Source of the DNA: an uncultured Syntrophobacterales bacterium
GTDB lineage: Bacteria > Desulfobacterota > BSN033 > WVXP01 > G020346125
Assembly: GCA_964346935.1 (NCBI GenBank)
Contig: CAYFXP010000190.1
Location: forward strand, 1 to 44,645
Reading direction: 5' to 3'
DNA length: 44,645 bases
Part shown: one piece after another, positions 15,928 to 33,335 of the stretch
How positions within the stretch are numbered: the stretch's first letter is position 1
Layout: each line of letters starts with the position of its first letter
Notes under the pieces: generated by a model
What the model was told of the DNA's origin: nothing
What the model saw: the letters and a program-made list of their open reading frames with translations, nothing else
Databases searched by the model: none
Program-made: the position numbers and the translations under genes

Positions 15928-16356
15928 TTATCGTTCCACCTCCAAGTATTCCATCATCCTGCCGATCCTCTTCTGGATCGGCTCGGGAATTCGATACAAG
16001 AGGGTCCCCTTGGAATCAGTCAGCACGTGAACCGTACGCCCCGTGGCCAGGACCCTGTTTGTCTCCGCGTGCAGCACCTCATAGGTGAAGATGAGGTTGG
16101 CCAATTCCGATGGTTGCATCCCCGTCCGGATGAGCAATTCATCGTTGGGCCTTGCGGGTTCCTTGAATTGACAGTGGACCTCGACCACCGGGGCGAGAAA
16201 GCCGGCATCCTTGAGGGTCAGCGGATCCAGTTCAAATTGAAGGGCGAGCTCATTGCGGCTCACCTCGAACCAATTAATGTAGTGGCCATGCCAGACCACT
16301 TCATAGAGATCAACCTCGGTAAAACGGACCTTAAGGCGCGTCTCGTGAAATCTCAT
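15928..16356 (-). CDS. Hotdog-fold acyl thioesterase (YbgC/4HBT-like)
   Basis: VRFTEVDLYEVVWHGHYINWFEVSRNE matches the catalytic-Asp N-terminal signature of YbgC-type thioesterases. Length 142 aa. Confidence 0.8.
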   Translation of the reverse strand: MRFHETRLKVRFTEVDLYEVVWHGHYINWFEVSRNELALQFELDPLTLKDAGFLAPVVEVHCQFKEPARPNDELLIRTGMQPSELANLIFTYEVLHAETNRVLATGRTVHVLTDSKGTLLYRIPEPIQKRIGRMMEYLEVER

Positions 16357-17287
16357 TCGGTCCTAACTTCCCCATGGAGCTGGAATCTCCCGTTGCCGTG
16401 GCTTTAACTCCCCTGTCGATCCATCGGATCAATTTACAGAGGGTGGCATCGTATCCCACCTCGATAAACCAGGCCACTCCTCGACGGAGGAGCTCCCTGA
16501 CACATCCCTCCCAATAAACTGGCCTGCATATCTCATCGGCCAAGAAAGGCTTGATGTCCCCCTTTTCCAGAAACGATAGCGTCATGTGATTGAGTATTCG
16601 GAACTTGGGTTCCCTGATATCGATGTGGTCCACCAGCTCCTGGATTTCAGCCCGAACGGGTTCCATAAGGTCACAGTGAAGAGGGGCGGAAAACGTCAGC
16701 CGGTGGGCGGCAATGGCGCCCAAATCGAGGGCCAAGGGGATGAGCTTGTCAATCCCTCCATTCAATCCGGAAAGGACGAAATTTCTCGATCCGTTGTAGT
16801 TGGCGATGGAGATTCGATACCCATCCAGCCGATCCCGAATGCCCTCGATTTGATCCATCTCCAAGCCGAGGACGAGGCACATGGATCCCCCTATCTCCCT
16901 TGCCCGTCCTTCTATGAGGAGGCCGATATCCCTCGTGAGGAGGAGCCCTTCTTGAAAATCGATGCTTTCCGCGGCCACCAAGGCCGCATAGATTCCCATG
17001 CTGTGCTCAGCGATGACATGGGGGAATATCCCCTCCCGCTGTAGACGATAATAATGGATGAGGCTGATGAGGTAGCTCGCCAGCTGAAGCTTGACGTTGA
17101 AATATGGCTCCCACTCCAGCTCCTGAATGGAGAAATTGAGGACGTCAAACCCACTGACCCGCTGGGTTTCCTCGTAAATCTCCTTGGCTAACCCCTCCCC
17201 GTAAATGGAATGATACGCGGGCAGGCGAGGACGTTCCTGGAGCTGCCCAGGAAAGCAGAAGCAGATTTTCTCCCCGCCTCGCTTCAT
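16331..17287 (-). CDS. FabD-like acyltransferase (malonyl-CoA:ACP transacylase fold)
   Basis: FCFPGQ (compare FPGQGSQ), the nucleophile elbow AEHSMGIYAAL (compare GHSLGEY), and FSAPLHCDLMEP (compare the PSHCALMKP His motif). Confidence 0.8.
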   Translation of the reverse strand: MKRGGEKICFCFPGQLQERPRLPAYHSIYGEGLAKEIYEETQRVSGFDVLNFSIQELEWEPYFNVKLQLASYLISLIHYYRLQREGIFPHVIAEHSMGIYAALVAAESIDFQEGLLLTRDIGLLIEGRAREIGGSMCLVLGLEMDQIEGIRDRLDGYRISIANYNGSRNFVLSGLNGGIDKLIPLALDLGAIAAHRLTFSAPLHCDLMEPVRAEIQELVDHIDIREPKFRILNHMTLSFLEKGDIKPFLADEICRPVYWEGCVRELLRRGVAWFIEVGYDATLCKLIRWIDRGVKATATGDSSSMGKLGPNEISRDAP

Positions 17288-17302
17288 CGAATTACTCGTT
17301 TT

Positions 17303-17575
17303 TCAGCCATTATCGCGGTTTTCGACAACGTACTGGGCAATTGTTCCCACGGATTGAAAGACCTTCTGCCCCACTTCAGCATCGGGAATGATCACCCCAT
17401 ACTCCTTTTCCAGCCCCAGGACTAGCTCCAGGGCATCGATGGAATCCAAACCCAACCCCTCACCAAAAAGAGGATCGTCGGTCCCGATATCCTCGGGCGT
17501 GACCTCCTCCAGTTTAAGCCGCTCGATGATGAGCCTCTTGAGCTGAAGGATGAGCTCTTCCGTTACCGTGGTCAT
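17303..17575 (-). CDS. Acyl carrier protein
   Basis: 90 aa and acidic, with the phosphopantetheine site LGLDSIDALELVLGLE. Confidence 0.9.
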   Translation of the reverse strand: MTTVTEELILQLKRLIIERLKLEEVTPEDIGTDDPLFGEGLGLDSIDALELVLGLEKEYGVIIPDAEVGQKVFQSVGTIAQYVVENRDNG

Positions 17576-17598
17576 CTTATCATCTCACCCATGTTCGG

Positions 17599-18555
17599 TC
17601 ATTCCCAATAAGAATAAAAGTTATACCATTGATCCGGGTATCGGCGAATGTAATCCTCGAAGACTCGGGTAATCTCCTGCATACCCTCCCGAATAACCCG
17701 CTCCCGTTTACCCCTTTCGCTCCCATCGAAGTAGATCGGCTTCTCGATGATTCCCCGATATTTCCAACCCTTCTCCATCACCACGAAGACGGGAAGAACC
17801 GGTGACCCGGCCATCATAGCCAGCATGGCAACGCCCATGGGAAACCGCGTCCTTCGGCCGAAGAAATCCACGTCGATGGTATTGGGGGAATCCTGCCGGT
17901 CGCCCAACATGGCGACGATCTCGTTATTCCTCAAGGCCTTGACCAGCTCTATGGTCGAAAAGGGATCCTCCCCTCCTCCCTTGATATAGAGTTCCCTGAT
18001 CCCCTTGGAATGCCTGAATCTCCCTCTGAAGGCCTTGGTCCTGGGGTCGGGTTCATCCAAGGACAGTACATTAAGGGTTCCCCCCCTGAAGGCCAGCAAC
18101 AGGCCCCCCATCTCCCAATTCCCCAGGTGCGGGGTAATGCAGATAGCCCCTTTTCCCTTCCTGAGTGCCTGGGCCATGTACTCCGCTCCGAGTTCTCCCT
18201 CTATCACCCTCCGCTTGTTGGAGGGGGTAATTTGATGTATCACCATGTAGTCCAACAGATATTGCCCATAGTTTCGAAAGGTCTTGCGGGCCAACCTGGA
18301 AATTTCTTGAGGGCTCAGTCGTCCTCGGCCGATTACCTCAAGGTTCCGTTTCACCGCCCGCCGGCTTCGCCTCATCAGCATATAGAAGATGTCGCCCACC
18401 GGAATGGCGACGAACTTCTGTACCGAACGAGGAATGAGGATCGAGCCCAAAAAGAACCCCAAGAGGTAAATGTATCTGTTCAAGGGACGGACGTTCTGTT
18501 CCCGCCTGGAATCACCCAATAAAGTACTCCTTGATAAAACGGAGAAGGGTTCCAA
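17599..18555 (-). CDS. LpxL/HtrB-family lysophospholipid/lipid A-type acyltransferase
   Basis: N-terminal membrane anchor and the family signature ITPHLGNWEMGG (HxGNWE). Length ~318 aa. Confidence 0.8.
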   Translation of the reverse strand: MEPFSVLSRSTLLGDSRREQNVRPLNRYIYLLGFFLGSILIPRSVQKFVAIPVGDIFYMLMRRSRRAVKRNLEVIGRGRLSPQEISRLARKTFRNYGQYLLDYMVIHQITPSNKRRVIEGELGAEYMAQALRKGKGAICITPHLGNWEMGGLLLAFRGGTLNVLSLDEPDPRTKAFRGRFRHSKGIRELYIKGGGEDPFSTIELVKALRNNEIVAMLGDRQDSPNTIDVDFFGRRTRFPMGVAMLAMMAGSPVLPVFVVMEKGWKYRGIIEKPIYFDGSERGKRERVIREGMQEITRVFEDYIRRYPDQWYNFYSYWE

Positions 18556-19879
18556 CCCCCAACCTGTGGCGTTTGATCAGTTGAAAGACATCTGTTCGTC
18601 CCTTTTTGGACCTCATATAATAGAGGAAATTGGCCTTCAGAAGCAACCACTGGAGACGGACGAAGGAGATATGATCGTGCTTAAACACCAGGTGCTGGGC
18701 ATCATAGAAGGTCCACGGCCTGCGGAACAAGCGGGCCTTCACCTTCTCATAGAGGGCGGTACCCGGGTAAGGCGTTAGAATGGAGAACTGCGCGACGTTG
18801 GTATCGAGCCGCTTGGCCCAATGGATGGTTTCGTTAACGGCCCCGGCCGTTTCCCCGAGTCCCCCCAAGATGTAGCTGGCGAAGATCTCAAATCCATTCC
18901 GCTTCAAAATCTCTACCGCTCGTTCGGCCATCCCGATATCGGACCTCTTCCCGAACTCCTCCAGGCTTTGCCGATGGGGGGTCTCAACTCCTATGTATAT
19001 GGTCTTGGCACCCGCTTTCCGCATCTTCCTGAGCATTGGCTCGTTCTTAACGATGGTATCGGCTCGGGAGAAATTCCACCACCAGATGTCAAGATTTCTC
19101 TGGATGATTCCTTCCGATAGCTCCATAATCCTTTGGGGGGAGAGGGTAAAATTATCATCCACAAATGCGATGGCATTAAAGCGATAACGCCGAACAAGCT
19201 CCTCGATCTCCTGGAGTACCGAGGACACGCTGCGGCTCCTCCACTTTCTGCCGAAGAAGGTGGAGGACGAACAAAAGGAGCAGTTGCTGGGACACCCTCG
19301 GCTGGTGATCACGGGCGTAATATCCCGATCCCCGAACTTGGTCTGCCGGTAATCGTTCATGTCGATGAGATGTCGAGCGGGCAAGGGGAGCTCGTCGAGG
19401 TCTTGGATGAACTCCCTCCGGGGTGTCCTCACGATATGACCATTCTGAGCAAAGCTGACCCCCTTAATGCGGGAAAACTCTCCCCTCTCCTTTTGCAATT
19501 CGACGAGGAGCTCGTGGAGGGTGACTTCCCCTTCCCCATGGACAACGAAATCCACACGGCCGGCCTTCAACACCTCCTCATCGACAAAACAGGGATGGGG
19601 GCCCCCCATGATAACGGTGCACCCTGCCCTTCGAGCCCTCTTGGCGATCTTGAGGGCATTGTAAAAGCGCGTTGTATCAGTGCCAATGCCCACCACGTCA
19701 TAATCTCGAAACCGGATATCCCCCTTCGAACCTCTGTGGATACACAGGTCCTTCACCTCTGGATGATGGCCCTCCCTCTCCAGATAGGCAGCCAGGGAGA
19801 GGAGCCCAAGCGGGGGAAAGTGGAGGCCTACGGCCTTCAGAATGCCGGTGTTGGGTGGGTTAATCAGCAACATTCTCAT
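18512..19879 (-). CDS. B12-binding-domain radical SAM protein
   Basis: MRMLLINPP...FPPLGLLSLAAYLEREG...DVVGIGT...VIMGGPHP, and SRGCPSNCSFCSS. Start taken at ATG 19879 after a G-rich RBS (the track starts at 19927). The 3' end overlaps the next gene by 44 nt. Confidence 0.9.
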   Translation of the reverse strand: MRMLLINPPNTGILKAVGLHFPPLGLLSLAAYLEREGHHPEVKDLCIHRGSKGDIRFRDYDVVGIGTDTTRFYNALKIAKRARRAGCTVIMGGPHPCFVDEEVLKAGRVDFVVHGEGEVTLHELLVELQKERGEFSRIKGVSFAQNGHIVRTPRREFIQDLDELPLPARHLIDMNDYRQTKFGDRDITPVITSRGCPSNCSFCSSSTFFGRKWRSRSVSSVLQEIEELVRRYRFNAIAFVDDNFTLSPQRIMELSEGIIQRNLDIWWWNFSRADTIVKNEPMLRKMRKAGAKTIYIGVETPHRQSLEEFGKRSDIGMAERAVEILKRNGFEIFASYILGGLGETAGAVNETIHWAKRLDTNVAQFSILTPYPGTALYEKVKARLFRRPWTFYDAQHLVFKHDHISFVRLQWLLLKANFLYYMRSKKGRTDVFQLIKRHRLGVGTLLRFIKEYFIG

Positions 19880-19933
19880 GCGGCCCCCCGTTTGTCGACC
19901 CACCATCGGCCTATGGGAAGCCCCCAAGCAGAA

Positions 19934-20926
19934 TCAGTCGGGTACCGACCGGATCGCGACTCGAGCCTCCTCCTGGGCGCCCTCAAAGGCATCGCTATGC
20001 TTTCCACAGGTATCCCCCCAGCAGGCCACGGCTTTCCCTTCGGCAATCAGTTCCATCACGTCACAGGTATTTCCACATCCATCGCATTCGAAGCTTCGGG
20101 TCGAAAAATTCCATTCGGCGACTTCTACTCCCTTGAAGCAAGTCTTGGAGGGCCTCACCCTTCTCACCAGCTTTGCGGCTCCGATAGCACCCATCAGGTC
20201 AAAGTGAGGCGGGACGATGACTTCCAACCCCAATTCCCTTTCCAAGGCCTGTCTGATTCCCCTGTTTGCGGCCACCCCGCCTTGGAAGACGACAGGGGGC
20301 AAGATCTCCTTACCCCTTGAAACGTTGTTCAGGTAGTTCTTGACCAGGGAATCGCATAACCCGGCGATGATATCCTCTATTTGATACCCCAGTTGCTGCT
20401 TGTGGATCATATCCGTTTCGGCAAAGACCGTACACCGCCCCGCAATGCGGACCCTATCCCGAGACCTTAAGGCCCAATCCCCGAAGTCCTCTATGGAAAT
20501 CCCAAGCCGGGAGGCCTGTTGGTCCAGAAAGGAACCCGTTCCCGCTGCGCAGACCGTGTTCATGGCGAAATCAACTACCACCTCCTCCCTCAGGATGATG
20601 ATCTTCGAGTCCTGCCCCCCGATTTCAATGATGGTCTTTGCATCGGGTACATAATCGACGACCGCCAAGGCGTGGGCCGTAATCTCATTCTTCACGACAT
20701 CGGCCCCAACCAGATAGGCCGCCAAGTGTCGAGCGCTTCCCGTGGTCCCAATCCCTTCTATGGAAAGGGGATTGCCCGCCTGACGAGTGATGCTCCGTAT
20801 TCCTTCCTGAATAGCGGCGATGGGCTTTCCCGCGTTTCTGAGGTAGGCATGGGCGATAACGCGATCTTCCCCATCGGTGAGGACAACCTTGGTCGTGATG
20901 GATCCCACATCGATTCCTAAATACAC
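19934..20926 (-). CDS. BcrAD/BadFG/HgdC-type ATPase (activase-like) with a C-terminal 4-Cys motif
   Basis: YLGIDVGSITTKVV (ASKHA phosphate-1). Cluster-ligand contexts NTVCAAGTGSFLDQQ and AGRCTVFAETDMIH. C-terminal FECDGCGNTC...CWGDTCGKH. GTG start after GAGGGGGAG. Confidence 0.88.
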   Translation of the reverse strand: MYLGIDVGSITTKVVLTDGEDRVIAHAYLRNAGKPIAAIQEGIRSITRQAGNPLSIEGIGTTGSARHLAAYLVGADVVKNEITAHALAVVDYVPDAKTIIEIGGQDSKIIILREEVVVDFAMNTVCAAGTGSFLDQQASRLGISIEDFGDWALRSRDRVRIAGRCTVFAETDMIHKQQLGYQIEDIIAGLCDSLVKNYLNNVSRGKEILPPVVFQGGVAANRGIRQALERELGLEVIVPPHFDLMGAIGAAKLVRRVRPSKTCFKGVEVAEWNFSTRSFECDGCGNTCDVMELIAEGKAVACWGDTCGKHSDAFEGAQEEARVAIRSVPD

Positions 20927-21930
20927 GTCTCCCCCTCAGACTGCAACGCTCTCGTCCTTCTCTGCGTACAGATGTCTACAAAGGCCTCCAATCTGGTGGC
21001 CAGGCCCTGGACGGTGGCATGCTCGTCCAGCGATAAGGTCAGGAAGGGAATGGTACTTTCTCCATGGGCCTTAAAAGCCCTCTTGAGATACTCCTGCAGG
21101 AGGGCATCGATACCGCATTTGAAGGAGCTTAAGAAGACCACGCCATCTATGTCGTTTCGCCTAAGGAAAATAAACGCAGCCCCAACAATTTCCCTCCCCG
21201 ATGACCAGTAGATCTCCTTGGATAGATTTGAGACCCTCCTATCGACCTCACCTCCGTCCAAGGAGTCGGCGATGGCGATCTGGCAGCCCAATTTCCTGAC
21301 CATCCCGAGGACATCTTTACTTACATCCGCATCATAGATATTGTAGGGATGACCGATGAGGGCGATATTGAGATCTCCAGACCAGGAGGTCGTCTCTGGT
21401 GTTGGTATCTCCAACGTGAAGATATCCCTAATGGGCAACCCGTTCACCCTCTTCGCCAAATCACCCTCGAATTCCCGCTGGGCAGAAAGAGCCGCGCGGG
21501 ACGCAGCACGGATCTGCCCTGGTTTCAACCCCAACCGCTCGCCTATGGCCTTAGAGAAGCCGCTCCATGGATCACTCCCCAACCGATAATCGAGGGAATC
21601 ATCAATGACTTCAGCTTGGTTCCCGGTGGCTAATTTAACGATATCAGGAACCCCCCTGAACTTTGGGCACATGATGTATTTGCGATGAATGCTGATTAGC
21701 CGCGGCACGAAGAGGAAGTCCACCTCCTTCGCAAGGTCAAGACAATGGGCGACCATCAACTTCATGGGGAAACAGCTATCCTCGAAATAACCGATGGCTT
21801 GTCTGCCGAGCAATCCCCTTCCCATCGGATCAGAGGTAACTACTTCACATCCCATTTCCCGGAAAAAGGCGGACCAAAGGGGAAAGAAGCGATAGTACAT
21901 GAGTCCCTTAGGGATGCCTACTCGTCTCAA
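20917..21930 (-). CDS. HgdA/B-like, DUF2229-type 'CoA enzyme activase-associated' protein (middle-domain type)
   Basis: VGIPKGLMYYRFFPLWSAFFREMGCEV and FLSSFKCGIDALL...LSLDEHATVQGLATRLEAFVD align by eye with residues ~680-990 of the 1407-aa protein. TTG start. Confidence 0.8.
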   Translation of the reverse strand: MRRVGIPKGLMYYRFFPLWSAFFREMGCEVVTSDPMGRGLLGRQAIGYFEDSCFPMKLMVAHCLDLAKEVDFLFVPRLISIHRKYIMCPKFRGVPDIVKLATGNQAEVIDDSLDYRLGSDPWSGFSKAIGERLGLKPGQIRAASRAALSAQREFEGDLAKRVNGLPIRDIFTLEIPTPETTSWSGDLNIALIGHPYNIYDADVSKDVLGMVRKLGCQIAIADSLDGGEVDRRVSNLSKEIYWSSGREIVGAAFIFLRRNDIDGVVFLSSFKCGIDALLQEYLKRAFKAHGESTIPFLTLSLDEHATVQGLATRLEAFVDICTQRRTRALQSEGETCI

Positions 21931-21967
21931 TGAAATCCTTGCCTCCCCTGATCCACCATCAAGGCAT

Positions 21968-22212
21968 CATCTGCGGCGTTGCCTTCGATCGCTCCTCCTT
22001 GCGGCGTATTGCTCCATACGCCTCAGTCGTCGCTCCTCGGCGCCTTGCATCTAATACCTTGCTGGTGATCAGGAATATTTCTATAACCTGCTGATTTCAG
22101 TTTTGACGGCTTCGTAAAAAGTCCACCTGCTGCGTTACGCCTCATCTTTCGTCATTGCGGCGTACTGGTAAGTACGCCTCATTCCTCAAGATTCGCAAGC
22201 CTTGCATTTGGC
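21968..22212. repeat. Two direct copies (~85 nt, offset 156 nt) of a hairpin-containing REP-like element
   Basis: Copy 1 is 21968-22052 and copy 2 is 22124-22209 (CTGC[G/T]GCGTT...TTGCGGCGTA...TACGCCTCA...GCCTTGCAT). Hairpins are GGCGTAT/ATACGCC (22003-22022) and GGCGTACT/AGTACGCC (22159-22178). Confidence 0.6.
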
Positions 22213-23379
22213 GCTTTTTACTTTGCCGTCGGATTTTTGACATTTTACGAGTTCATCAGTTTTAATACCTAAATTAGACGGTGGATTTTGGCGTCTCCTC
22301 CACCTGAGCATATCCACGAAGGCCTCAAGCAACGTGATAATCCGCCCCTCGTTCTCCTGCTCGTCCAAGATGAGGGTAAGGACGGGAAGGCCCAAATCCC
22401 TGCTCACCCGATCGAGGATCCCCGATGCAGTGGTTTCCGGCATACACGCGAAGGGCATCAAGTGGACGACCCCGTCGTAACCGTCCTTTGCCCTGAGGAT
22501 GGTTTCCCCTATGGAGACGTTGCATTCGGCCCCCACATCGTAGCCTAAATATTCAAGGGAAGCCTGATGGTAGCTCAGCCGCTCCCGCCGATTCTTCCTC
22601 CCCACGCCCAGGCTTCTCATAATGTGCGAGGAAAACCACGAGGTTCGGCTTACCTCGACCCCCAATTCCCCTAGTTTTCGCTCGACTCCCTTGTTGATTT
22701 GGGGATCCATCACCGTATAGAGCTCACCCACGATGGCTACCTTCAGGGGCTGTCGACCACGGTCTTGATCAACGGAATCGAGGATTTTCTCCCCATCGAT
22801 GACGGCCCTTTCGATGGCCTTGCCCGTTTTCGCCCTATCGAGACCTGCGAGGACTTTCTGCAAAGCCTTCTCCGTTCGCCCTATAATGACTTCTCTGGCC
22901 CGCACCTTCAAGGCCAGCTTCTCCAGCTTTTCGCAGGCCATCATCTTTTTCCAGCCAACCCAGAGGGCATAGGGGAACGTCGCGATGTTCTTGAAGCTTA
23001 ACTCCTTCTTCAGCTCCATGGTCTCTTCCCTATTCTTGAGCAGGGCCGGCCAGTCCAGCGTGGGGGGAATGGTCAACCATCTATAGTGAAGGCCTAAGTC
23101 CTCAAGGATGACCTTTTGAACCAGGTCATAGAGGCCGAGCCTACAAGGAGGACCGCTTCCCACCATTATGATGGTGTCCGCGCCCAGCTCCAGGGCCTCG
23201 ATGAAATTTCCCAGGATAATCTTAAAAGGGAGGCAAATACATTCGTTGGAATTCTTAACGCCTAGGGTGAGGGTCTTCTTGCTCGTTTTGGGTGGGACGA
23301 CATAATCGATACCCGCGGTTTCCGCGATCGCCTTGCAGAATATGTGCATCGTTCCCAGGTGCGGAAAGGTGACCTTCAT
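22186..23379 (-). CDS. HgdA/B-like, DUF2229-type protein (C-terminal-domain type)
   Basis: KVTFPHLGTMHIFCKAI...NECICLPFKIILG and HLMPFACMPETTASGIL...LILDEQENEGRIITLLEAFVD align by eye with residues ~1000-1390 of the 1407-aa protein. ATGA overlap with the upstream radical SAM gene. Confidence 0.8.
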   Translation of the reverse strand: MKVTFPHLGTMHIFCKAIAETAGIDYVVPPKTSKKTLTLGVKNSNECICLPFKIILGNFIEALELGADTIIMVGSGPPCRLGLYDLVQKVILEDLGLHYRWLTIPPTLDWPALLKNREETMELKKELSFKNIATFPYALWVGWKKMMACEKLEKLALKVRAREVIIGRTEKALQKVLAGLDRAKTGKAIERAVIDGEKILDSVDQDRGRQPLKVAIVGELYTVMDPQINKGVERKLGELGVEVSRTSWFSSHIMRSLGVGRKNRRERLSYHQASLEYLGYDVGAECNVSIGETILRAKDGYDGVVHLMPFACMPETTASGILDRVSRDLGLPVLTLILDEQENEGRIITLLEAFVDMLRWRRRQNPPSNLGIKTDELVKCQKSDGKVKSAKCKACES

Positions 23380-24767
23380 GCATGTTTACCCCCTGCTCCT
23401 ACCTCCACCTCCCCCGCATCCCCTTCCTGCCACGCGGCATCGGCTATTGCCCCGTACTCCTCGGCAAACCGATCGATATCGGGCGCCAAATCCGCAAAGA
23501 GGGCCCGCGCACCGGGATGGGTAAAGTATCCGGCATAATTGAGGGCAAGATCCCTCCCCTGACGAGGATGATCGATTAACATACAAGGCCTCATGTGATT
23601 CTCGGAAAAGGGCTGCCGAGCCCGAATCTCCCTGAAAAGGGGAGATGTAAGCACCTCAAGAAGGGATTTCCCCCGAATATTATCCGATGCAAAATGACAG
23701 AAAACACAGGGCTCCACATCGCCCCGGGCGTTGATGTGCAAGTACTTCCTCCCCCCAGCAATACACCCCTGGGTGAGATGACCATCGTTCCAAAAATCAA
23801 CAAACAGCATGGGCTTGGTTGCCCGAAAATACCGCAACCGCTCCCGCATCAAATTCCTCTGCCCAGGGGTAGCCATCATCCTGAGATCCGGATTCCTCCC
23901 AATGGGAACGTAATAGAAATTCCACATCAGAATACACCCCTTCTCCACCAAAAAATCGATGAACTCGTCGCTCGTCAGAATATCGGTGTTAAAACACGTC
24001 TGAGTCGTGGAAACCGCGAAAAAAAGACCCGCCTCCCTCAAAAGATCCATCACCCGCACATTCCACTCGAAACGACCCTCGCCCCTCCTCAAATCGGTAT
24101 GATCCTGAAGCCCCTCCACGCTGATGGCCGGCATGACATTGCCCAACCCGATAAACCGATCCACCATCTTCTCGTCAATCAGGGTCGCATTGGTATAGAT
24201 CTGAAAACTTACATCCCCGTGCCTCTCGAAAAGCTCGAATATGTCACCCCTCAGGAAGGGCTCCCCCCCCGTAAAGAGAATGAGGTGAATCCCCATCTCC
24301 TTGCCCTCGGCGATCACCCTGTCGATGATCTCCAACTCCATCTCCTCCCCATACTCATAGTCCCCCGAATAGCACCCATCGCAGCTGAGGTTGCACCGCA
24401 TGGTCGGACTGATGAGAAGGGCATCGGGCGGATAGACCCCCGTGCTCGCCTCGAATTCCTTCCGCCTATTGGTGCCCACCAAGAGCTGATTGATGATGAA
24501 GTTGGTGATGATCTTCCTGCGGTGATGCGAATTTGCCTCCCTCAATATTCGCTTGGCTAACTGAAGCCCCGGGTGCTTCCGCCTGAAGAGCTCCCTGATC
24601 CAACGGATCTTCCTCCGATATGAATCCTTTCGCGGGATTCTCTCGGCCAGGTGTGTCAGACGGATCAGCTGCTCATCGGATGCACTGGCCAGAAGGGAGA
24701 GGGCACTGGTGGTGAACTTCTCGAGGGAGTAGTGCTTCATCCTCGTGTAGACGCTTACCTTTGACAT
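23376..24767 (-). CDS. Radical SAM protein with a C-terminal SPASM/twitch-like Cys region
   Basis: PTMRCNLSCDGCYS (CxxxCxxC), LFTGGEPFL, and C-terminal GCIAGGRKYLHINARGDVEPCVFCHF...RPCML. Start taken at ATG 24767 after AAAGGTGGAG (the track starts at GTG 24776). Confidence 0.85.
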   Translation of the reverse strand: MSKVSVYTRMKHYSLEKFTTSALSLLASASDEQLIRLTHLAERIPRKDSYRRKIRWIRELFRRKHPGLQLAKRILREANSHHRRKIITNFIINQLLVGTNRRKEFEASTGVYPPDALLISPTMRCNLSCDGCYSGDYEYGEEMELEIIDRVIAEGKEMGIHLILFTGGEPFLRGDIFELFERHGDVSFQIYTNATLIDEKMVDRFIGLGNVMPAISVEGLQDHTDLRRGEGRFEWNVRVMDLLREAGLFFAVSTTQTCFNTDILTSDEFIDFLVEKGCILMWNFYYVPIGRNPDLRMMATPGQRNLMRERLRYFRATKPMLFVDFWNDGHLTQGCIAGGRKYLHINARGDVEPCVFCHFASDNIRGKSLLEVLTSPLFREIRARQPFSENHMRPCMLIDHPRQGRDLALNYAGYFTHPGARALFADLAPDIDRFAEEYGAIADAAWQEGDAGEVEVGAGGKHA

Positions 24768-24791
24768 TCGCTCCACCTTTTCCGCCGAGAT

Positions 24792-25466
24792 TTACCGCCA
24801 TAACAGACTCCGTAGGTAGAGCATGCAGATCTTAAAGGTGTCGATGACTGGTCTGAAATGACTGGTGCTGGTACCAGAAATGGCATGGCCTTTAGTTGAC
24901 ATAGTTACCACACGATACCCTTTTTTGCAAGCCTTGATGAGCAACTCCATCTCCGTTTCGTAAGTTGAGGTGGTGAGCTCGACGTTCCGTAACACCTCTG
25001 TACGGATGAGACGATAACCGGATTGACTGTCGCTTATCGGGGTATGGGTTAATCGTGAAACGGCCTTTGCCCCCAATCGATTCCAGAACCGCCTCAGCCA
25101 GGGCATCTGGCCGAACTGGGCGGCCCTGGATCCAATGATGATATCCGGGCTCTCGTTCCGGTCAAGCTCTACAAAACGTGGGATCTCAGCGGGATGATGT
25201 TGGCTATCAGCATCAAGAGTGATGACCGCTTCATACCCGTGCTCCATCACATGGGCAAAGCCCGTCCTAAGGGCACGGCCCTTTCCTTTGTTGGTGGGGT
25301 GTCGCAATAGGGTGACCCCCATCTCCCTGCCGATTCGAGCCGTTGAATCCGTCGAGCCATCGTCTACAACGATGATATCGAGACGGCTTTGTTTTACCCC
25401 TTCAATTACCCCCTTGAGGGTCTTTTCTGCATTGTAGGCCGGTATGAGAACGCACAATTCGCTCAA
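24792..25466 (-). CDS. Family 2 glycosyltransferase (polyprenyl-phosphate/DPM1-like size class)
   Basis: VLIPAYNAEKTL...IIVVDDGSTDST...TLDADSQH (DxD context). 224 aa with no TM tail. TTG start overlapping the upstream stop (TTGA). Confidence 0.85.
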   Translation of the reverse strand: MSELCVLIPAYNAEKTLKGVIEGVKQSRLDIIVVDDGSTDSTARIGREMGVTLLRHPTNKGKGRALRTGFAHVMEHGYEAVITLDADSQHHPAEIPRFVELDRNESPDIIIGSRAAQFGQMPWLRRFWNRLGAKAVSRLTHTPISDSQSGYRLIRTEVLRNVELTTSTYETEMELLIKACKKGYRVVTMSTKGHAISGTSTSHFRPVIDTFKICMLYLRSLLWR

Positions 25467-26305
25467 GGTGAATCCCCATAAATCTGCCTGATGGCACCGA
25501 AGGAAAACTCCCCCAGAAGCCTTTCCATCCTTTCCTCGGTGCTCTTGATCTTTCCGTGACAGACGAAGCGCTTTACCAGAGGCAATGAAATTTTCGGCGG
25601 ATCGGGATCGAACTCGGAGGGGTGGAGAAAAATCACCGCAGGTATCTCGTGACCATTCAACTCCTCAATGGCCCCCCTGATCATTCCGTATGGAAAAACC
25701 CTTAACCCCCATCCTCCCCCCACGGGTACGTTCCCCGCCCAGGTACTCTTAACCAGGGGAGGAAATTCCTCAATCCTCCCATGGTCCGTCGAGATGCTAT
25801 AGGGTTTCCTGGGGGCGTTGGGGATTCCGATGATCCTTAGAGGCGCGATGCTGGAGTCGTATCGGAATCCATTTGAGGCCAAGATCGGCAAGGCCCAAAG
25901 GGAATTCCTCGGCCCCTTTCTGATGGACCATTCAGGAGCCCGGTACCCAAAAACCTGGCCGCCGATTACCTCTTGAATGACACTCCTTGACCGGGTAAGA
26001 TCCCTCTCGAACTTATCCGGAGTCATCTTATAGACCTGTATGTGGCCAAACCCATGGGAGGCGATCTCATGCCCTTCATCCGCGATCATCTTGATTACAT
26101 CCGGGAGCCGTTGGGCGACGTATCCCAGGACGAAAAAGGTACCGAAGACCCGATTCGTGGAGAGGATCTCAAGAATTCTGGTGACGTTTTTCTCCACCCT
26201 ACTCTCGCAGCGATCCCACTGGGATGGAGGGACGATGTTTTCGATATCACAGATATGAAACCAATCCTCCACGTCGACCGTTATGGCATTGAGAACATCC
26301 TTCAT
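25463..26305 (-). CDS. Polysaccharide deacetylase-family protein (PEP-CTERM-locus/DUF3473-like subtype)
   Basis: N-terminal NAITVDVEDWFH and HEIASHGFGH metal-site motifs. The subtype name is from memory. Confidence 0.8.
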   Translation of the reverse strand: MKDVLNAITVDVEDWFHICDIENIVPPSQWDRCESRVEKNVTRILEILSTNRVFGTFFVLGYVAQRLPDVIKMIADEGHEIASHGFGHIQVYKMTPDKFERDLTRSRSVIQEVIGGQVFGYRAPEWSIRKGPRNSLWALPILASNGFRYDSSIAPLRIIGIPNAPRKPYSISTDHGRIEEFPPLVKSTWAGNVPVGGGWGLRVFPYGMIRGAIEELNGHEIPAVIFLHPSEFDPDPPKISLPLVKRFVCHGKIKSTEERMERLLGEFSFGAIRQIYGDSP

Positions 26306-27567
26306 CGAGGCGCTAAGAATCTCCTCATATCCCTGTCGTAGAGAAGGGTCAAAAGGGTTAAAACCCTGCCAAGCACGGGACCAGGATCCTGCCGGGAGAT
26401 TATATCATAGCAGGTATTCTGGTTGAAGAAATCGAAAAAAGGGGGGGAGAGGTGAAATCGGTTTGGGCTTCGGAAGAAGTGGAAGAGATCCCCGGGAAGC
26501 AGCCAGCGGCAACGTAGACCAACCTCATAGTTAAGGACCGGCTCGAAACGTTCCCCTTTCGCCATTCGGTATATGAGATAAGGGAAATCCACCCCGGAGG
26601 AAATAGCTAATTGCAGGGATCCCCAGAACCTGGGATTCACCTCCATCAGCTTCGGGGTATTATCCCTTGGATCCATTTTGAACTCCACCATGGCCACACC
26701 GAACCAATCCAGGGCCCTGAGTAGCGATAGCCCCAGCTCCAAGAGCTCGGGGTGTAAAACCGACTCCCGTAGAGTACTAGGGCCACCACTGATGGGATAT
26801 TCCCTCAATCTACGATGGACGAAGGCCGCCTTCACCTTTGAATCCTCATCGAAAAGGGCCGATATTCCGAAGGAATCCCCCTCCCGGGGAATACGCTCCT
26901 GAACCAGGGGAAGGGGATACTTTTGGTGAGCTGCCAGGTAGGCTGCTAAAAGGTCTTGCCCTTCGTTGACGTAACGAACTCCAAAGGCCCCGGACCCTAT
27001 TCGTGGCTTAACGACGGCCGGAAACCTAAATCGGCTGGCCTTAACCTCTTCGGGAGTTCTGAAGAAGAAGGTCCTTGGACAGGGAATTCCCTTTTTCATG
27101 GCGAATTTCAGCAGCTTTTCCTTATCCCGGACGAACTGGATCTTTTCATAGGGTGCAACGGGCAGGAACGCGAGGCCATCAAAGAGGTCCCGATGCCGTG
27201 CCAGCAGCAGCAGGGTGACCTCCTCCATTGGAAAGATTGCACAGTAACCCCTCGCAAGCTCCCGGCGCAAATAAGTAAGAAACCCATCGGGATTCCTGAT
27301 GGGAGAGGGATATATGACCCGTCGTGAGCAGTATCTGGAGAAAAAGGACGTTGCGATAGCCGTGCTTTCGCCAACGGTCACCCGGATCCCTTTCCTCCCG
27401 AGCGAACGAACGACCGCTAACGTCTTTCTCCAATGTCCATCGGTAACGAAAACCCGCATCTCCCTCGTCAGGGAGGGAATTCCAGCTTCCCCCATTATCT
27501 CGACGAAAAGGGAAAGGAGACCCTGGAGTGAAAAAAATCTAAGCTCATGGGTCTCCCGTGGCGGCAT
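26302..27567 (-). CDS. ATP-grasp domain protein (carboxylate-amine ligase-like)
   Basis: MRVFVTDGHWRKTLAVVRSLGRKG pre-ATP-grasp Rossmann segment, FPAVVKPRIGSGAFG, and EFKMD...PKLMEVNPRFWGS. The start is ambiguous: ATG 27567 (4 nt after the upstream stop) or ATG 27459 (after GAGGGAG). Confidence 0.8.
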   Translation of the reverse strand: MPPRETHELRFFSLQGLLSLFVEIMGEAGIPSLTREMRVFVTDGHWRKTLAVVRSLGRKGIRVTVGESTAIATSFFSRYCSRRVIYPSPIRNPDGFLTYLRRELARGYCAIFPMEEVTLLLLARHRDLFDGLAFLPVAPYEKIQFVRDKEKLLKFAMKKGIPCPRTFFFRTPEEVKASRFRFPAVVKPRIGSGAFGVRYVNEGQDLLAAYLAAHQKYPLPLVQERIPREGDSFGISALFDEDSKVKAAFVHRRLREYPISGGPSTLRESVLHPELLELGLSLLRALDWFGVAMVEFKMDPRDNTPKLMEVNPRFWGSLQLAISSGVDFPYLIYRMAKGERFEPVLNYEVGLRCRWLLPGDLFHFFRSPNRFHLSPPFFDFFNQNTCYDIISRQDPGPVLGRVLTLLTLLYDRDMRRFLAPR

Positions 27568-28237: not shown

Positions 28238-28267
28238 TTGAAAAGAAAATTTGAATTCTTATATAAT
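28238..28267 (+). promoter_or_regulatory. sigma70-like promoter TTGAAA-18 nt-TATAAT for the 1407-aa gene
   Basis: TTGAAA at 28238-28243 and a perfect TATAAT at 28262-28267. It lies ~80 nt upstream of ATG 28345, with GAGGA at 28332-28336. Confidence 0.5.
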
Positions 28268-28344: not shown

Positions 28345-31300
28345 ATGGACGGGTTCTATTTAGGCATCGACGTCGGATCGGTGAGTGCCAACACGGTTAT
28401 CTTGGACAGCAATCGACTGGTCGTTGAGGAGCACTACACGCGGACTAGGGGACGTCCGCTGAGGGCTGTCAAGACAATCCTAGAGGAAATAGTGGATCGC
28501 ATTCCTATGGAGCGGTTTCAAGCGATTTCCCTGACGGGAACGGGGGGAAAACTGCTGGCTGAACTCCTGGGCGGGATGTTCATCAACGAAATCATGGCAC
28601 AGGCTAAAGCGGTCTCCTCCCTCTATCCCGAAGTACGAACGATAATCGACGTGGGAGGCGAGGACTCCAAACTTATTCTCGTCGACTACGAGGGAGGGGA
28701 CGGGCATTTCAAGATCAACGATTTTGCCATGAACACCCTCTGTGCAGCGGGAACGGGCTCCTTTCTGGATCAACAGGCCAGCCGGCTGGGGCTCACTATC
28801 GAGGAATTTGGGCAGCTGGCCTTGAGGTCGGAGAATCCTCCCCGTATTGCGGGTAGGTGCAGCGTCTTCGCAAAATCGGATATGATCCATTTGCAGCAGA
28901 TTGCCACGCCCGACTATGACATCGTGGCCGGCCTCTGTTTCGCCCTGGCCAGGAATTTCAAGAGCAACATCGCAAAGGGGAGAACGCTTATAAAGCCCGT
29001 CTCGTTTCAAGGAGGTGTGGCCGCTAATCTGGGGATGAGGAGGGCTTTCCAGGAGGTCTTGGATTTAGCTGAGGGAGAATTGATCATCCCGAAATACTAC
29101 GCCTCCATGGGGGCCATCGGGGCCGTGTTGATGACCATGGAGGATCAGGCCTCTGATCGGCACTTCATGGGCATCGAGCGGCTTGAAGACTACCTCAACC
29201 ATCACCGGGAGTCTAGGGCGAGCCTCGAAAAACTCTCCCTATCAGAGAATTACCTGAAGACGGGTGAAAAGGGAGCACCCACTCCCCTTCAAGGGAAAAG
29301 GATCGATGCATACCTTGGCTTGGATGTGGGTTCCATCAGTACCAATCTCGTAGTCATCGATGAGAATGAAAACGTGCTCTCGAAGCGATACCTCATGACG
29401 GCGGGCAGGCCCATCGAGGCCGTGAGGATAGGCCTCAAGGAGATCGGAGAGCAAATCGGAGACCGGGTCAACATAAAGGGTTGTGGAACCACAGGATCCG
29501 GAAGGTATCTCACCGCTGATTTCGTGGGGGCGGACATCGTCCGAAACGAGATTACGGCTCAGGCAACGGCCGCGGCACGCATTGACCCCCACGTCGATAC
29601 CATTTTTGAAATCGGTGGACAGGATTCCAAATACATTAGCCTCGAGAACGGCGTCGTCGTGGACTTCGAGATGAACAAGGTATGTGCTGCCGGAACTGGT
29701 TCCTTCCTGGAGGAGCAAGCGGAAAAGCTGGATATCTCCATCAAGGAGGAATTCGGGAACCTCGCCCTCGATGCCCCTGAGCCCATCAGGATGGGGGAGA
29801 GGTGTACGGTCTTCATCGAGTCGGATCTGGTTCACCATCAGCAACGAGGTGCCAAGACCGACGACCTCGTGGCTGGACTGAGTTACTCCATCGTCCAGAA
29901 TTACCTCAACCGCGTGGTAGGTGAAAAACGCGTAGGGGATCACATCTTCTTCCAAGGTTGTACAGCCTTCAACAGGGGGGTCGTAGCCGCCTTCGAGCGG
30001 TGGCTCGGAAAGGATATCGTCGTTCCCGAGAACCACGATGTTACCGGGGCCATCGGGGTGGCCATCCTGGCAAAGGAGGAGAGGACCTGGGAGGAGAGCA
30101 CGTTTAAAGGATTTGACCTCAGCGAAAGGAAATATGAACTCACCACCTTCGAATGCAAGGGCTGCTCCAATATGTGCCTCATCCGGAGGGTGAGCGTCGA
30201 GGGGGAGAAGCCCCTCTTTTACGGGAGCAGGTGCGAGAAGTACGATGTCATCAAGAGGAGCCGGGGAGAGAACGTGCCCGATATCTTCGCCGAGAGGGAA
30301 GAGCTGCTGTTCGCCCCCTATGAGGGGGAGGAGGACCTCCCCGAGGATGCTCCGGTAATCGGCATTCCCAGGATTCTGCACTTCCACGAGCTCTTCCCCT
30401 TCTGGAAGGCATTTTTGACGGAGTTGGGCTATCGAATCGTGCTTTCAGACCCCACCAATAAAGAGCTCATTCGAGAAGGGGTTGAAACCATTGTGGCCGA
30501 GACCTGCTTTCCCATCAAGGCGGCACATGGCCATGTGCTCAACCTCCTGAAGAAGGGGATCAAGGATATCTTCATCCCCAGTGTCATCAACATCGAATCT
30601 CCCGACCCCGAAATCGAGCTTACCCAGACCTGTCCCTACATCCAATCCTTTCCCTATGCGGCGAAATCCTCCATCGACTTCAACGGGTATGGAGCGAAGG
30701 TCCTTCAGCCCATCATCCATTTCGGGTGGGGGAGAGACCAGGTGGAAAGGGAATTGGTTCGGTTTGGAAGGCAGTTGAAACGCAGCGCCTCCAAGGTGAG
30801 GAAGGCCTTCGAAAAGGCTAAGGCAAATCAGAAGAAGTTCTACGGGGCGCTGATCAAGAGGGGACGGGAAATTGTGGAGGGGTTGAAACCGGGGGAGAAG
30901 ATAATGGTTATCGTGGGGCGACCGTATAACAGCTGTGATTCCGGAGTCAACCTCGAGGTTCCCAAGAAGCTCAGGGAGATGGGCGTACTGGCGCTGCCCA
31001 TGGACTACCTGTCCCTGGATTTGGCCTCTCGCAAAGAAGGGATAAAGGAGATGTACTGGCGCTATGGGCAGAAGATCTTGAGCGCTGCCCATCTCATCAG
31101 GGAGAATCCAAACCTCTCTGGGGTTTTCATCAGCAACTTCGGCTGTGGGGCGGACTCCTTCATCCTTCACTTCTTCAGGGATACGCTGAGGGGGAAACCC
31201 TTTTTGCAATTGGAGATCGATGAACATAGCGCCGATGCCGGGGTGATCACCCGGTGTGAGGCCTTCCTGGATAGCCTGAAACACGCCAGGGAACCGGCAA

Positions 31301-32568
31301 AGGAAAAAGTCAGGAGACCGTTAAAGACCGATACCACCAGTAAGATCTACATCCCGTACATGTGCGATCACTCCTACGCCGTGGCGGCTGCGTTTGAGGC
31401 CTGTGGAATCTCGGCTGATGTATTTCCCGAATCCGACGAGGAGACCCTTTTCTGGGGGAGGAAGATGACCTCCGGCAAGGAGTGCTATCCCTGCACGCTC
31501 ACCACTGGGGATATGGTGAAGCTCGTGAGCAACCCTCAGTTCGACCGGGATAGAGCGGCGCTATTTATGCCCTCGGGAAATGGCCCCTGTAGGTTTGGAC
31601 AGTACAACCGCTTCCAGCGCATCGTCCTCGATGAACTCGGATTTGAGGACGTTCCCATCTATTCGCCAAATCAGGACGAGACCCTCTACACCGATTTGGG
31701 AGTGATGGGGTCCAGGTTCACCCGATTGGGGTGGCAGGCGATTGTCGCCGTGGATCTGCTCATAAAAAAGCTCCTTGAGACCAGGCCATACGAAAGGAAT
31801 GAGGATGAAACAGATAGGGTATACCGAGAGTGCCTCGATTTGGTCTGCGAGGCCATCAAGAATGAGGATGATTTGGAACAGGCATTAGCGGAAGCCCGGA
31901 ATAGGCTTAATGGAATTGCGGTGGAGGCCCCAGGCGCAAAGCCTCTGATCGGAATCGTCGGGGAGATTTACGTGCGCTCCAACCGATTCTCCAATGAGGA
32001 CGTGATCCGAAAGATCGAACAGTTCGGCGGGGAAGCATGGCTTTCACCTGTCTCGGAATGGATCCTGTATATTAACGCCATGGGCAAGAGGCACAGCCTG
32101 AGGCACAAGAGCTTCTCCACCCTCTTGAGGATCTTCCTCACCGACTACTACCAGAGAAAGGACGAACATCGCCTGACAAAGGTCTTCAAGGGACACCTCA
32201 GAAACCTGCATGAGCCGACGGTAAAATCGATCCTGCGACAGGCAAGGCCCTATCTGCACGATTCCTTCGAGGGGGAGGCGGTCTTGAGCGTGGGTCGCAC
32301 CGTCGATTTCGCCGATTCGGGGTGTAGCGGAATAATCAACGTCATGCCCTTCACGTGCATGCCGGGTACAATAGTGAGCGCCATCCTGAAACGATATCGG
32401 GAGGAGAGCAACAACTTTCCCGTCCTCAACATGGCCTATGATGGCCAAGAACAGACCAACACCCTCACCCGCATTGAGGCCTTCATGTACCAGACTAAAC
32501 AGTACCAGGAAAGGAACCTGCTCAACAGCCGGAGGACTGCAGCACTGCAACACCGCAGCACCGGATAG
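28345..32568 (+). CDS. Giant fused protein: two BcrAD/HgdC-type ATPase domains plus two HgdA/B-like (DUF2229-type) domains
   Basis: Domain 1 has YLGIDVGSVSANTV, NTLCAAGTGSFLDQQ and AGRCSVFAKSDMIH. Domain 2 has YLGLDVGSISTNLV, NKVCAAGTGSFLEEQ and GERCTVFIESDLVH, followed by FECKGCSNMC...SRCEKYD. Next come FISNFGCGADSF...LEIDEHSADAGVITRCEAFLD, and then NVMPFTCMPGTIVSAIL...MAYDGQEQTNTLTRIEAFMY. Confidence 0.92.
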   Translation: MDGFYLGIDVGSVSANTVILDSNRLVVEEHYTRTRGRPLRAVKTILEEIVDRIPMERFQAISLTGTGGKLLAELLGGMFINEIMAQAKAVSSLYPEVRTIIDVGGEDSKLILVDYEGGDGHFKINDFAMNTLCAAGTGSFLDQQASRLGLTIEEFGQLALRSENPPRIAGRCSVFAKSDMIHLQQIATPDYDIVAGLCFALARNFKSNIAKGRTLIKPVSFQGGVAANLGMRRAFQEVLDLAEGELIIPKYYASMGAIGAVLMTMEDQASDRHFMGIERLEDYLNHHRESRASLEKLSLSENYLKTGEKGAPTPLQGKRIDAYLGLDVGSISTNLVVIDENENVLSKRYLMTAGRPIEAVRIGLKEIGEQIGDRVNIKGCGTTGSGRYLTADFVGADIVRNEITAQATAAARIDPHVDTIFEIGGQDSKYISLENGVVVDFEMNKVCAAGTGSFLEEQAEKLDISIKEEFGNLALDAPEPIRMGERCTVFIESDLVHHQQRGAKTDDLVAGLSYSIVQNYLNRVVGEKRVGDHIFFQGCTAFNRGVVAAFERWLGKDIVVPENHDVTGAIGVAILAKEERTWEESTFKGFDLSERKYELTTFECKGCSNMCLIRRVSVEGEKPLFYGSRCEKYDVIKRSRGENVPDIFAEREELLFAPYEGEEDLPEDAPVIGIPRILHFHELFPFWKAFLTELGYRIVLSDPTNKELIREGVETIVAETCFPIKAAHGHVLNLLKKGIKDIFIPSVINIESPDPEIELTQTCPYIQSFPYAAKSSIDFNGYGAKVLQPIIHFGWGRDQVERELVRFGRQLKRSASKVRKAFEKAKANQKKFYGALIKRGREIVEGLKPGEKIMVIVGRPYNSCDSGVNLEVPKKLREMGVLALPMDYLSLDLASRKEGIKEMYWRYGQKILSAAHLIRENPNLSGVFISNFGCGADSFILHFFRDTLRGKPFLQLEIDEHSADAGVITRCEAFLDSLKHAREPAKEKVRRPLKTDTTSKIYIPYMCDHSYAVAAAFEACGISADVFPESDEETLFWGRKMTSGKECYPCTLTTGDMVKLVSNPQFDRDRAALFMPSGNGPCRFGQYNRFQRIVLDELGFEDVPIYSPNQDETLYTDLGVMGSRFTRLGWQAIVAVDLLIKKLLETRPYERNEDETDRVYRECLDLVCEAIKNEDDLEQALAEARNRLNGIAVEAPGAKPLIGIVGEIYVRSNRFSNEDVIRKIEQFGGEAWLSPVSEWILYINAMGKRHSLRHKSFSTLLRIFLTDYYQRKDEHRLTKVFKGHLRNLHEPTVKSILRQARPYLHDSFEGEAVLSVGRTVDFADSGCSGIINVMPFTCMPGTIVSAILKRYREESNNFPVLNMAYDGQEQTNTLTRIEAFMYQTKQYQERNLLNSRRTAALQHRSTG

Positions 32569-33206: not shown

Positions 33207-33335
33207 CTGGTCTGTTGCCCGAATTCCCCTACACTCACTGAAAATAATTTTGGACCATTCTAAAGTTCGGTTCACTGCAAACCCAAAACTCGCCCTTCGG
33301 GCTCAGACAGATGGATTTGCTGCCGTTTCGCTTCC
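33207..33335 (+). repeat. Copy of the dispersed repeat family (arm plus interior)
   Basis: CTGGTCTGTTGCCCGAATTCCCC...GAAAATAATTTTGGACCATTCTAAAGTTCGGTTCACTGCAAA...GCCCTTCGGGCTCAGACAGATGGATTTGCTGCCGTTTCGCTT. By eye it is ~80% identical to the reverse complement of 6445-6598. Confidence 0.6.

Follow-up and report, generated by a model that had tools for sequence, protein, structure and literature searches.

Why would a bacterium keep two versions of what looks like one ATP-driven reductase on the same short contig, one fused into a single giant protein and the other split over three genes? The question is raised by a 44,645-nt contig (CAYFXP010000190.1; hereafter the window) from an uncultured Syntrophobacterales bacterium, which carries on its plus strand a 4224-bp gene for a 1407-aa protein (28345..32568) and on its minus strand a trio of genes for 330-, 337- and 397-aa proteins. 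The trio lies within a lipid-type gene cluster of 20 kb (7641..27567, minus strand). The initial annotation of this DNA, made from sequence alone, saw in the fused protein a rearranged copy of the trio and took the two to be paralogs serving the same pathway. We find that the observation is confirmed and its interpretation partly supported. With a probability of roughly 70%, the fused gene encodes an ester reductase of the PlsA/Ger type, the trio is its ancient paralog, and the two stand together through an insertion or deletion (indel) of the whole gene cluster, with no sign of functional coupling.

The fused gene resembles the PlsA/Ger ester reductases

Pfam and NCBIfam matches and comparison with homologs give the fused protein the order ATPase1-ATPase2-Cys4-Red1-Red2, all on the plus strand. 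The first ATPase (activation) domain (aa 1-300, 28345..29244) carries the motifs GIDVGS and DVGGEDSK and the cluster cysteines C133 and C172; the second (aa 318-600, 29296..30144) carries GLDVGS, EIGGQDSK, C447 and C487, and is followed by a CX2CX3CX18C motif (C604, C607, C611 and C630; 30154..30234). Next come reductase module 1, a DUF2229 region (aa 672-990, 30358..31314) with invariant C721, C763 and C934, and reductase module 2, the equivalent of PlsR (aa 1000-1391, 31342..32517), with invariant C1047, C1082 and C1338.

The ATPase half contains two BcrAD_BadFG (PF01869) stretches scoring 265 bits combined, and the ATP-binding motifs are intact in both domains. These domains pass the domain cut-off of the NCBIfam model TIGR00241, 'acyl-CoA dehydratase activase', and their sequence matches in the PDB (4eht, 9gai_D, 1hux and 7yyl_E) are activators of HAD, BCR and DCCP enzymes. 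In the reductase half, PF09989 (DUF2229) covers residues 672-888 with 227 bits (cut-off 29.4), and a weak second DUF2229 match falls in the C-terminal module (E 1.6e-5). PDB sequence and profile searches with the reductase modules gave no match. The fusion remained under the cut-offs of the BCR equivalog models (170 against 578 for TIGR02259, 138 against 380 for TIGR03192 and 116 against 313 for TIGR02261), and HGD-D (PF06050, gathering threshold 28.4) scored 13.8 on the fused Red1, 24.0 on the split Red1-like protein and 22.7 on the split Red2-like protein.

We sampled cysteine conservation over 29 diverse fused proteins and about 22 split systems. C133/C172, C447/C487, C721/C763/C934 and C1047/C1082/C1338 were invariant, and at the ligand positions of the bridging Fe-S cluster both cysteines were invariant in the ATPase-1, ATPase-2 and split-ATPase groups alike. 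The four-cysteine motif, which varies little or not at all in ATPase-2 and split ATPases (its fourth cysteine is aligned in 79% of the ATPase-2 sequences) and is absent from ATPase-1, is probably a metal or Fe-S site.

Proteins of this kind, named 'CoA-substrate-specific enzyme activase' in databases, had been regarded in the initial annotation as lacking an assigned substrate. That view is outdated. Experiments have shown that PlsA and Ger turn the sn-1 acyl ester bond of glycerolipids into an ether, either vinyl or alkyl (PMC13159169, PMC12838417, PMC8788747). Ger combines a pair of PF01869 activation domains with a PF09989 reduction domain and has smaller reduction/dehydration matches at its C terminus (Sahonero-Canavesi et al., PMC13159169); the core of two PF01869 domains followed by DUF2229 ('BBD') is conserved in all alkyl-ether producers, and the Ger proteins of T. 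maritima and D. alkenivorans, when expressed in E. coli, yielded 1-O-alkyl glycerols only under anoxic conditions (PMC13159169). Plasmalogen synthase is encoded by a plsA-plsR two-gene operon in C. perfringens and by a single plsA gene of ~4.25 kb, ordered Act1-Act2-Red1-Red2, in E. faecalis, L. cremoris and B. longum (PMC12838417, PMC9702350, PMC8788747).

The fusion has two N-terminal PF01869 domains, DUF2229 directly after them and a PlsR-equivalent C-terminal module in a single open reading frame (ORF) of ~1400 aa. Like the Ger proteins Tmari_0479 (T. maritima) and SHJ90043 (D. alkenivorans), it is thus a single polypeptide of ~1400 aa with two PF01869 domains, PF09989 and a second reductase-like module at the C terminus, although the small HGD-D and DUF2229 sub-matches in that C-terminal part vary between members. 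The Ger hosts are anaerobic, like the host of the fusion, and D. alkenivorans shares a phylum with the relatives of the window. With PlsA/PlsR the fusion shares the BCR/HAD-derived Act1-Act2-Red1-Red2 order and the conserved [4Fe-4S] cysteines, and E. faecalis plsA, at 4248 bp, is of nearly the same length (PMC12838417); in C. perfringens (CPE1194/1195) the enzyme is spread over two genes and its product is a vinyl ether. On its domain layout and length, its conserved residues and the family's published breadth, the fused gene appears to be an ordinary member of the known, functionally characterised PlsA/Ger family rather than an orphan. Since the two-ATPase form in Thermodesulfobacteriota hosts correlates with alkyl ethers (PMC13274423), a Ger-type, alkyl-ether outcome is favoured.

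The family is also large. More than 8000 homolog clusters were scored for the fused protein, the best of them 70-92% identical, ~1400 aa long and from metagenome-assembled genomes (MAGs) of Syntrophaceae/Thermodesulfobacteriota. A search with the reductase half against 1.84 billion representatives at 50% identity returned 4961 matches at E <= 1e-3 and 1090 at E <= 1e-30, and 84 of the best 150 were at least 1300 aa long.

The split trio is probably a deep paralog of the fusion

Collinearity of the fusion with the three split proteins was borne out by BLASTP. The split ATPase (330 aa, 19934..20926, minus strand), with intact motifs and its own four-cysteine motif (C281/284/288/307), aligns with fusion residues 323-633 at 48% identity (E 7e-92), through the cysteine motif, and with residues 5-281 at 46% (E 1e-73). 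The Red1-like reductase subunit (337 aa, 20917..21930, minus strand; DUF2229, three invariant cysteines) aligns with residues 672-985 at 29% (E 8e-37), and the Red2-like subunit (397 aa, 22186..23379, minus strand; also three invariant cysteines) with residues 1000-1391 at 24% (E 1e-24). The motif blocks singled out in the initial annotation are present: residues 130-156 of the fusion and 123-149 of the 330-aa protein are identical at 23 of 27 positions, and the CX2CX3CX18C spacing is the same in both. The trio's gene order on the minus strand (C-terminal, middle, ATPase) had been described correctly, as had the single ATPase of the split system against two in the fusion; that these would form a homodimer and an intramolecular pseudo-dimer, respectively, is plausible, the two bridging-ligand cysteines being invariant in all three ATPase groups.

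With sequence and profile searches empty, a fold search provides the sole link of the reductase modules to HAD, BCR and DCCP. The model of the split Red1-like protein is moderate (pLDDT 69), and its top Foldseek matches (7yyl_A, 3o3m, 6eno, 9gai_A and 8s02) have probabilities of 0.99-1.0 with low TM-scores of ~0.3. At the moderate confidence of this model, the best matches of the predicted fold are the catalytic subunits of DCCP, HAD (2-hydroxyisocaproyl-CoA dehydratase) and BCR. The trio has all the parts of a BCR/HAD-type machine: one ATPase, presumably a homodimer, and two distinct catalytic subunits.

How closely are the two systems related? The split ATPase is 52-61% identical to the ATPases of Bacillota trios, against 48% and 46% to ATPase-2 and ATPase-1 of the neighboring fusion; the corresponding figures are 32-39% against 29% for the Red1-like protein and 32-42% against 24% for the Red2-like protein. 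The 337-aa protein belongs to a separate, stand-alone family of ~330-aa proteins, with many members at 50-99% identity. When 150 diverse family representatives and the window's fusion were ranked by similarity to the three split parts, the fusion came only 3rd, 4th and 16th of 151. In neighbor-joining trees (100 bootstraps), Red1-like and Red2-like modules separate at 100, and clades form for fused Red1 (92), fused Red2 (100), ATPase-1 (98), ATPase-2 (99) and split ATPase (85). The window's split parts group with other Thermodesulfobacteriota split parts at 98-100 and pair with the window's own fused domains in 0 of 100 replicates. By these comparisons, trio and fusion are most likely deep, ancient paralogs with no special sequence relationship, and the ranks and trees do not support the earlier step from side-by-side location to a shared pathway.

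We considered, and rejected, the possibility that ATPase-1 and the split ATPase are linked by a recent duplication or by gene conversion. The DNA of the 27-residue block is 81% identical, with differences at 7 of 23 synonymous third positions, and the two ATPases fall in separate clades of the trees. The near-identical motif block reflects conservation around the cluster-ligand cysteine, not gene conversion.

Between the Red2-like and Red1-like genes lies a lineage-specific insertion of ~348 nt (21947..22294) that is absent from two other loci with the same gene cluster (L001 and L002). It contains two direct repeats of ~65 nt, each with a hairpin GAGGCGTA-N-TACGCCGCAA (21999-22024 and 22155-22180). 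The 397-aa ORF takes its final ~33 codons from this insertion, which also accounts for the 255 nt that separate that ORF from the 337-aa gene.

Adjacency of fused gene and trio probably follows a lineage-specific indel

The fused gene and the trio had been described as divergently transcribed. They do lie on opposite strands, but the true divergent partner of the fused gene is an acylphosphatase gene (98 aa, PF00708; 27571..27867, minus strand), the first of the minus-strand train, and the trio lies 5-8 kb beyond it. A sigma-70-like promoter match (28238..28267, plus strand; 11 of 12 positions, a consensus match only) stands 78 nt upstream of the fused gene's ATG. The pairing of acylphosphatase and fused gene recurs in five other contexts (L081/L082, L084, L085, L090 and L091), spans relatives at about 72% to 90% identity and is kept even where the lipid cluster is missing.

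Close relatives show how the arrangement may have arisen. In L084, whose fused protein is 90% identical, the order is deacetylase, ATP-grasp, acylphosphatase and fused gene, with the gene cluster at the same site. In L081/L082, whose fused protein is 88% identical, ApbE, acylphosphatase and fused gene follow one another with nothing in between. DNA alignment places window positions 6622-7600 and 27563-27880, ~20 kb apart here, only 267 bp apart in L082, which makes the whole 20-kb cluster 7641..27567 an indel. In one 2.2-Mb MAG contig that carries both, the fused gene (421.7-425.9 kb) and the gene cluster (~654-676 kb) are ~230 kb apart. In 18 other cluster loci with usable flank on the fused-gene side, that flank held no fused gene, and three further fused-gene contexts had no cluster within 6-10 kb. 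A positional link between the fused gene and such clusters is not supported: the fused family is widespread, far commoner than the 20-kb cluster and usually unlinked to it. We conclude that the adjacency is mostly not meaningful: it results from an indel, specific to this lineage, that comprises the whole cluster and lies downstream of the acylphosphatase gene (the fused gene's ancestral divergent neighbor), and it is for the most part no sign of functional coupling.

Signs of mobility were sought at the gene cluster and were absent: Rfam gave no match, there were no tRNAs and no integrase at its boundaries, and no shift in base composition marked it as foreign. Two inverted copies of a short dispersed repeat (6446..6600 and 33209..33333), 80-84% identical, bracket the segment that runs from ApbE through the gene cluster to the acylphosphatase and fused genes; in L081-L083 one copy is found 3' of the fused gene. 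The repeat has no Rfam match, and its folding energy is not unusual (z -1.0).

The trio is built into a conserved lipid-type gene cluster

The 20-kb cluster combines a fatty-acid synthesis (FAS) line with radical S-adenosylmethionine (radical-SAM) enzymes. Its FAS genes encode its own acyl carrier protein (ACP; 17303..17575), two ketosynthases (KS), FabG, a FabZ-like dehydratase, a FabD-like transferase and a thioesterase; no enoyl reductase gene was found in the cluster. Four B12-radical-SAM proteins and one SPASM radical-SAM protein accompany them, together with an LpxL-type acyltransferase, a polyprenyl-phosphate-type GT2, a polysaccharide deacetylase, an ATP-grasp ligase and a small membrane protein. 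The product of 11746..13146 (minus strand) passes the NCBIfam model TIGR04072, 'lipid biosynthesis B12-binding/radical SAM', at 393 against 360 bits, which ties the cluster to a family first noted in ladderane-type and Desulfotalea FAS clusters. A further B12-binding radical-SAM gene, the fifth in the window, lies outside the cluster (537..1904, plus strand), ~6 kb beyond ApbE.

When genomes were scanned with a profile built on the 337-aa family, 80 loci were returned, 33 of which (L001-L033), from Syntrophia-like MAGs, have the trio within the same cluster. The genomes represent Thermodesulfobacteriota species sampled in peat, soil, lakes and the subsurface. Their conserved order is ATP-grasp, deacetylase, GT2, SPASM radical-SAM, Red2-like, Red1-like and ATPase, followed by a B12-radical-SAM gene, LpxL-like, FabD-like, thioesterase, three B12-radical-SAM genes, FabG and KS, with some of the loci incomplete or without individual cluster genes. 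One of them, L023, has a partial tandem duplication (13985..15840) of GT2, SPASM radical-SAM and the first 42 Red2-like codons.

In the remaining loci (L034-L080), mostly from Bacillota such as Desulfotomaculum, Pelotomaculum and Desulfoscipio, a trio of Red1-like, Red2-like and ATPase genes stands without FAS or radical-SAM genes, between spoIIAA-spoIIAB-sigF/spoVA-like and trpB-like/lysA genes. These Bacillota neighbors (sigF, spoVA and lysA) give no biosynthetic hint. Because the trio stands alone in many Bacillota, it is best seen as a self-sufficient enzyme. Other fusion states of the same machine occur in six loci (L047, L064, L077, L065, L068 and L078): in one state a fused ATPase+Red1 gene is flanked by two Red2-like genes and one Red1-like gene, beside ATP-grasp and deacetylase genes; in another, Red1 and Red2 are fused and the ATPase is separate; a third locus has a SPASM radical-SAM gene, one ATPase, two Red pairs and an LpxL-like gene.

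Published TIGR04072-type FAS clusters of Kuenenia, Desulfotalea and Geobacter share with the window an atypical KS, FabG and further radical-SAM genes (PMC2649909), but are not described with a PlsA/Ger-like trio or with SPASM radical-SAM, LpxL-type, GT2, deacetylase or ATP-grasp genes; phytoene-desaturase-like genes, typical of those clusters, were not seen in the window's cluster. A literature search on TIGR04072 found no paper. The SPASM radical-SAM protein was considered as a Tes/Mss-type membrane-spanning lipid synthase. This was not supported: GDGT-MAS (7tol) matches only its generic radical-SAM core (E 0.003), more weakly than SkfB and others, and no NCBIfam model came near its cut-off.

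Relation to the BCR/HAD/DCCP superfamily

Both window systems belong to the BCR/HAD/DCCP superfamily, as an actin-fold ATPase with two cluster cysteines joined to a catalytic subunit of HAD/BCR/DCCP fold. HgdABC, HadBCI and BcrABCD/Bzd/Mbd share an 'archerase' logic of an actin-fold ATPase dimer, a bridging [4Fe-4S] cluster and an alpha/beta pair of Fe-S catalytic subunits. Likeness to HAD and BCR is at the level of sequence for the ATPase (4eht, 1hux and 9gai) and of fold for the reductase subunit (3o3m, 9gai and 8s02), whereas the reductase modules here fall under the HGD-D and BCR thresholds. HAD and BCR act on CoA thioesters; the characterised relatives of the fusion act on lipid esters. 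The extra CX2CX3CX18C motif was unseen in the matching solved activators, in alignments that stopped before the motif.

DCCP and its activator DCCP-R from Carboxydothermus hydrogenoformans (6eno, 7yyl) provide the best fold for the split Red1-like model and a match to the ATPase domain, respectively. The [8Fe-9S] cluster of DCCP has six cysteine ligands per subunit (PDB 6eno), and each reductase module here has three invariant cysteines. DCCP is moreover a homodimer, whereas the window's systems pair two distinct paralogous modules. Compared with PlsA/PlsR, the split system differs in being three genes, ordered Red2-like, Red1-like and ATPase, with one ATPase only.

Discussion

The fused protein is probably an oxygen-sensitive, ATP-driven reductase of membrane-lipid ester bonds within the BCR/HAD superfamily. 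By analogy with HgdC/BCR activators and published proposals for PlsA/Ger, its two actin-fold ATPase domains would form an intramolecular pseudo-dimer bridging a [4Fe-4S] cluster on C133/C172 and C447/C487, and ATP hydrolysis would drive an electron of low potential, perhaps by way of the CX2CX3CX18C site, to the pseudo-heterodimer of Red1 and Red2, in which each module would hold a three-cysteine [4Fe-4S] site. There the sn-1 acyl ester carbonyl of a glycerolipid would be reduced and dehydrated to a vinyl ether, which Ger-type enzymes would reduce further to a saturated alkyl ether. The split genes would make the same machine in three polypeptides, an ATPase homodimer with a Red1-like/Red2-like heterodimer. 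With low confidence, we suggest that the trio reduces the ester installed by the cluster's acyltransferase to an ether on the cluster's own lipid product.

Several points weigh against this account. We infer the substrate of the split trio purely by reasoning, and as the cluster has no enoyl reductase the trio could act instead on ACP-bound intermediates. The neighbor-joining trees are simple distance trees of 28 sampled representatives, and the validated PlsA and Ger proteins were compared by description only; whether a member yields the alkyl ether of Ger or the vinyl ether of PlsA is at present indistinguishable from its sequence (PMC13274423). Finally, the adjacency is kept in at least two close genomes and the cluster lies 3 nt from the acylphosphatase gene, so local co-regulation within this lineage is possible.

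That spacing, which would allow a control region shared with the divergent fused gene, is also an argument that the fused and split systems are functionally coupled paralogs acting on related substrates in one pathway, with their adjacency a product of the coupling. Both are PlsA/Ger-like, L084, with its 90% identical fused protein, has the same adjacency, and the two loci co-occur in at least one other genome. We nevertheless judge coupling improbable, because an 88% relative lacks the whole cluster at this site, 230 kb separate the loci in another genome, the fused gene is missing beside 18 cluster loci with flank on that side, fused and split sequences have no special relationship, and the fused family occurs far more widely than the cluster does. 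A very unlikely reading takes the database name 'CoA-substrate-specific enzyme activase' at its word and makes the fused protein an acyl-CoA-directed BCR/HAD enzyme, an aryl-CoA reductase or 2-hydroxyacyl-CoA dehydratase with a built-in activase, serving aromatic or amino-acid fermentation in the syntrophic host. Its ATPase domains do pass TIGR00241 and match HAD/BCR activators in the PDB, and a similar Ruminococcus protein was so interpreted in one paper (PMC11362221). Yet all BCR subunit equivalogs score far under their cut-offs (170 against 578, for example), the reductase modules are DUF2229 with HGD-D under its gathering threshold, aromatic-degradation genes are absent beside the fused gene in six contexts, and proteins of the same architecture have demonstrated ester-to-ether activity on lipids (PMC13159169, PMC12838417).

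For the trio, a possible if somewhat unlikely alternative is that it makes no ethers but works on intermediates of the cluster's fatty-acid line that are bound to ACP or CoA, for instance as an ATP-driven enoyl/polyene reductase or a radical dehydratase standing in for the missing enoyl reductase. The BCR/HAD superfamily includes such chemistries, related TIGR04072-type clusters have been linked to polyunsaturated hydrocarbons in Desulfotalea (PMC2649909), and the cluster holds two KS together with ketoreductase, dehydratase, acyltransferase, ACP and thioesterase functions and lacks an enoyl reductase. On the other hand, the closest characterised relatives of the trio at the domain level are DUF2229/PlsA-Ger proteins, not HGD-D or BCR; an ester-forming LpxL-type acyltransferase is conserved next to it; and in many Bacillota it is a self-contained operon without FAS genes, which points to a substrate of general cellular use, for example a membrane lipid. 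It is quite unlikely, though worth keeping in mind, that the trio forms ethers, or performs some other ATP-driven radical reduction, as one step in a dedicated, undescribed lipid pathway encoded by the 20-kb cluster.

On the preferred reading, in which a PlsA/Ger-type fusion and its ancient paralog came to stand together through an indel, the fused gene itself adds little: it adds one more Syntrophia-like anaerobe to the hosts of a wide family and sets right an outdated 'CoA activase' annotation. Fusion states of PlsA/Ger-like machines are known to range over one four-domain gene, two genes, three genes, ATPase+Red1 and Red1+Red2, and adjacency of paralogs is here a poor guide to shared function. 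The proposal that the pairing would shed light on the giant family is reversed, since the characterised fused family suggests a role for the split trio and its cluster. The real lead is this paralog in three genes, which is fixed within a conserved cluster of radical-SAM, FAS and acyltransferase genes. 'Additional PlsA homologs lacking an activation domain' have been called of unclear role (PMC13274423), and the cluster provides a defined genetic context for such homologs and a possible route to new bacterial ether-lipid chemistry of relevance to lipid biomarkers. If such a dedicated pathway exists, the Syntrophia-like anaerobes would make a methyl-branched or otherwise radical-modified ether (glyco)lipid, and they could be a source of the orphan branched ether lipids in anoxic environments.

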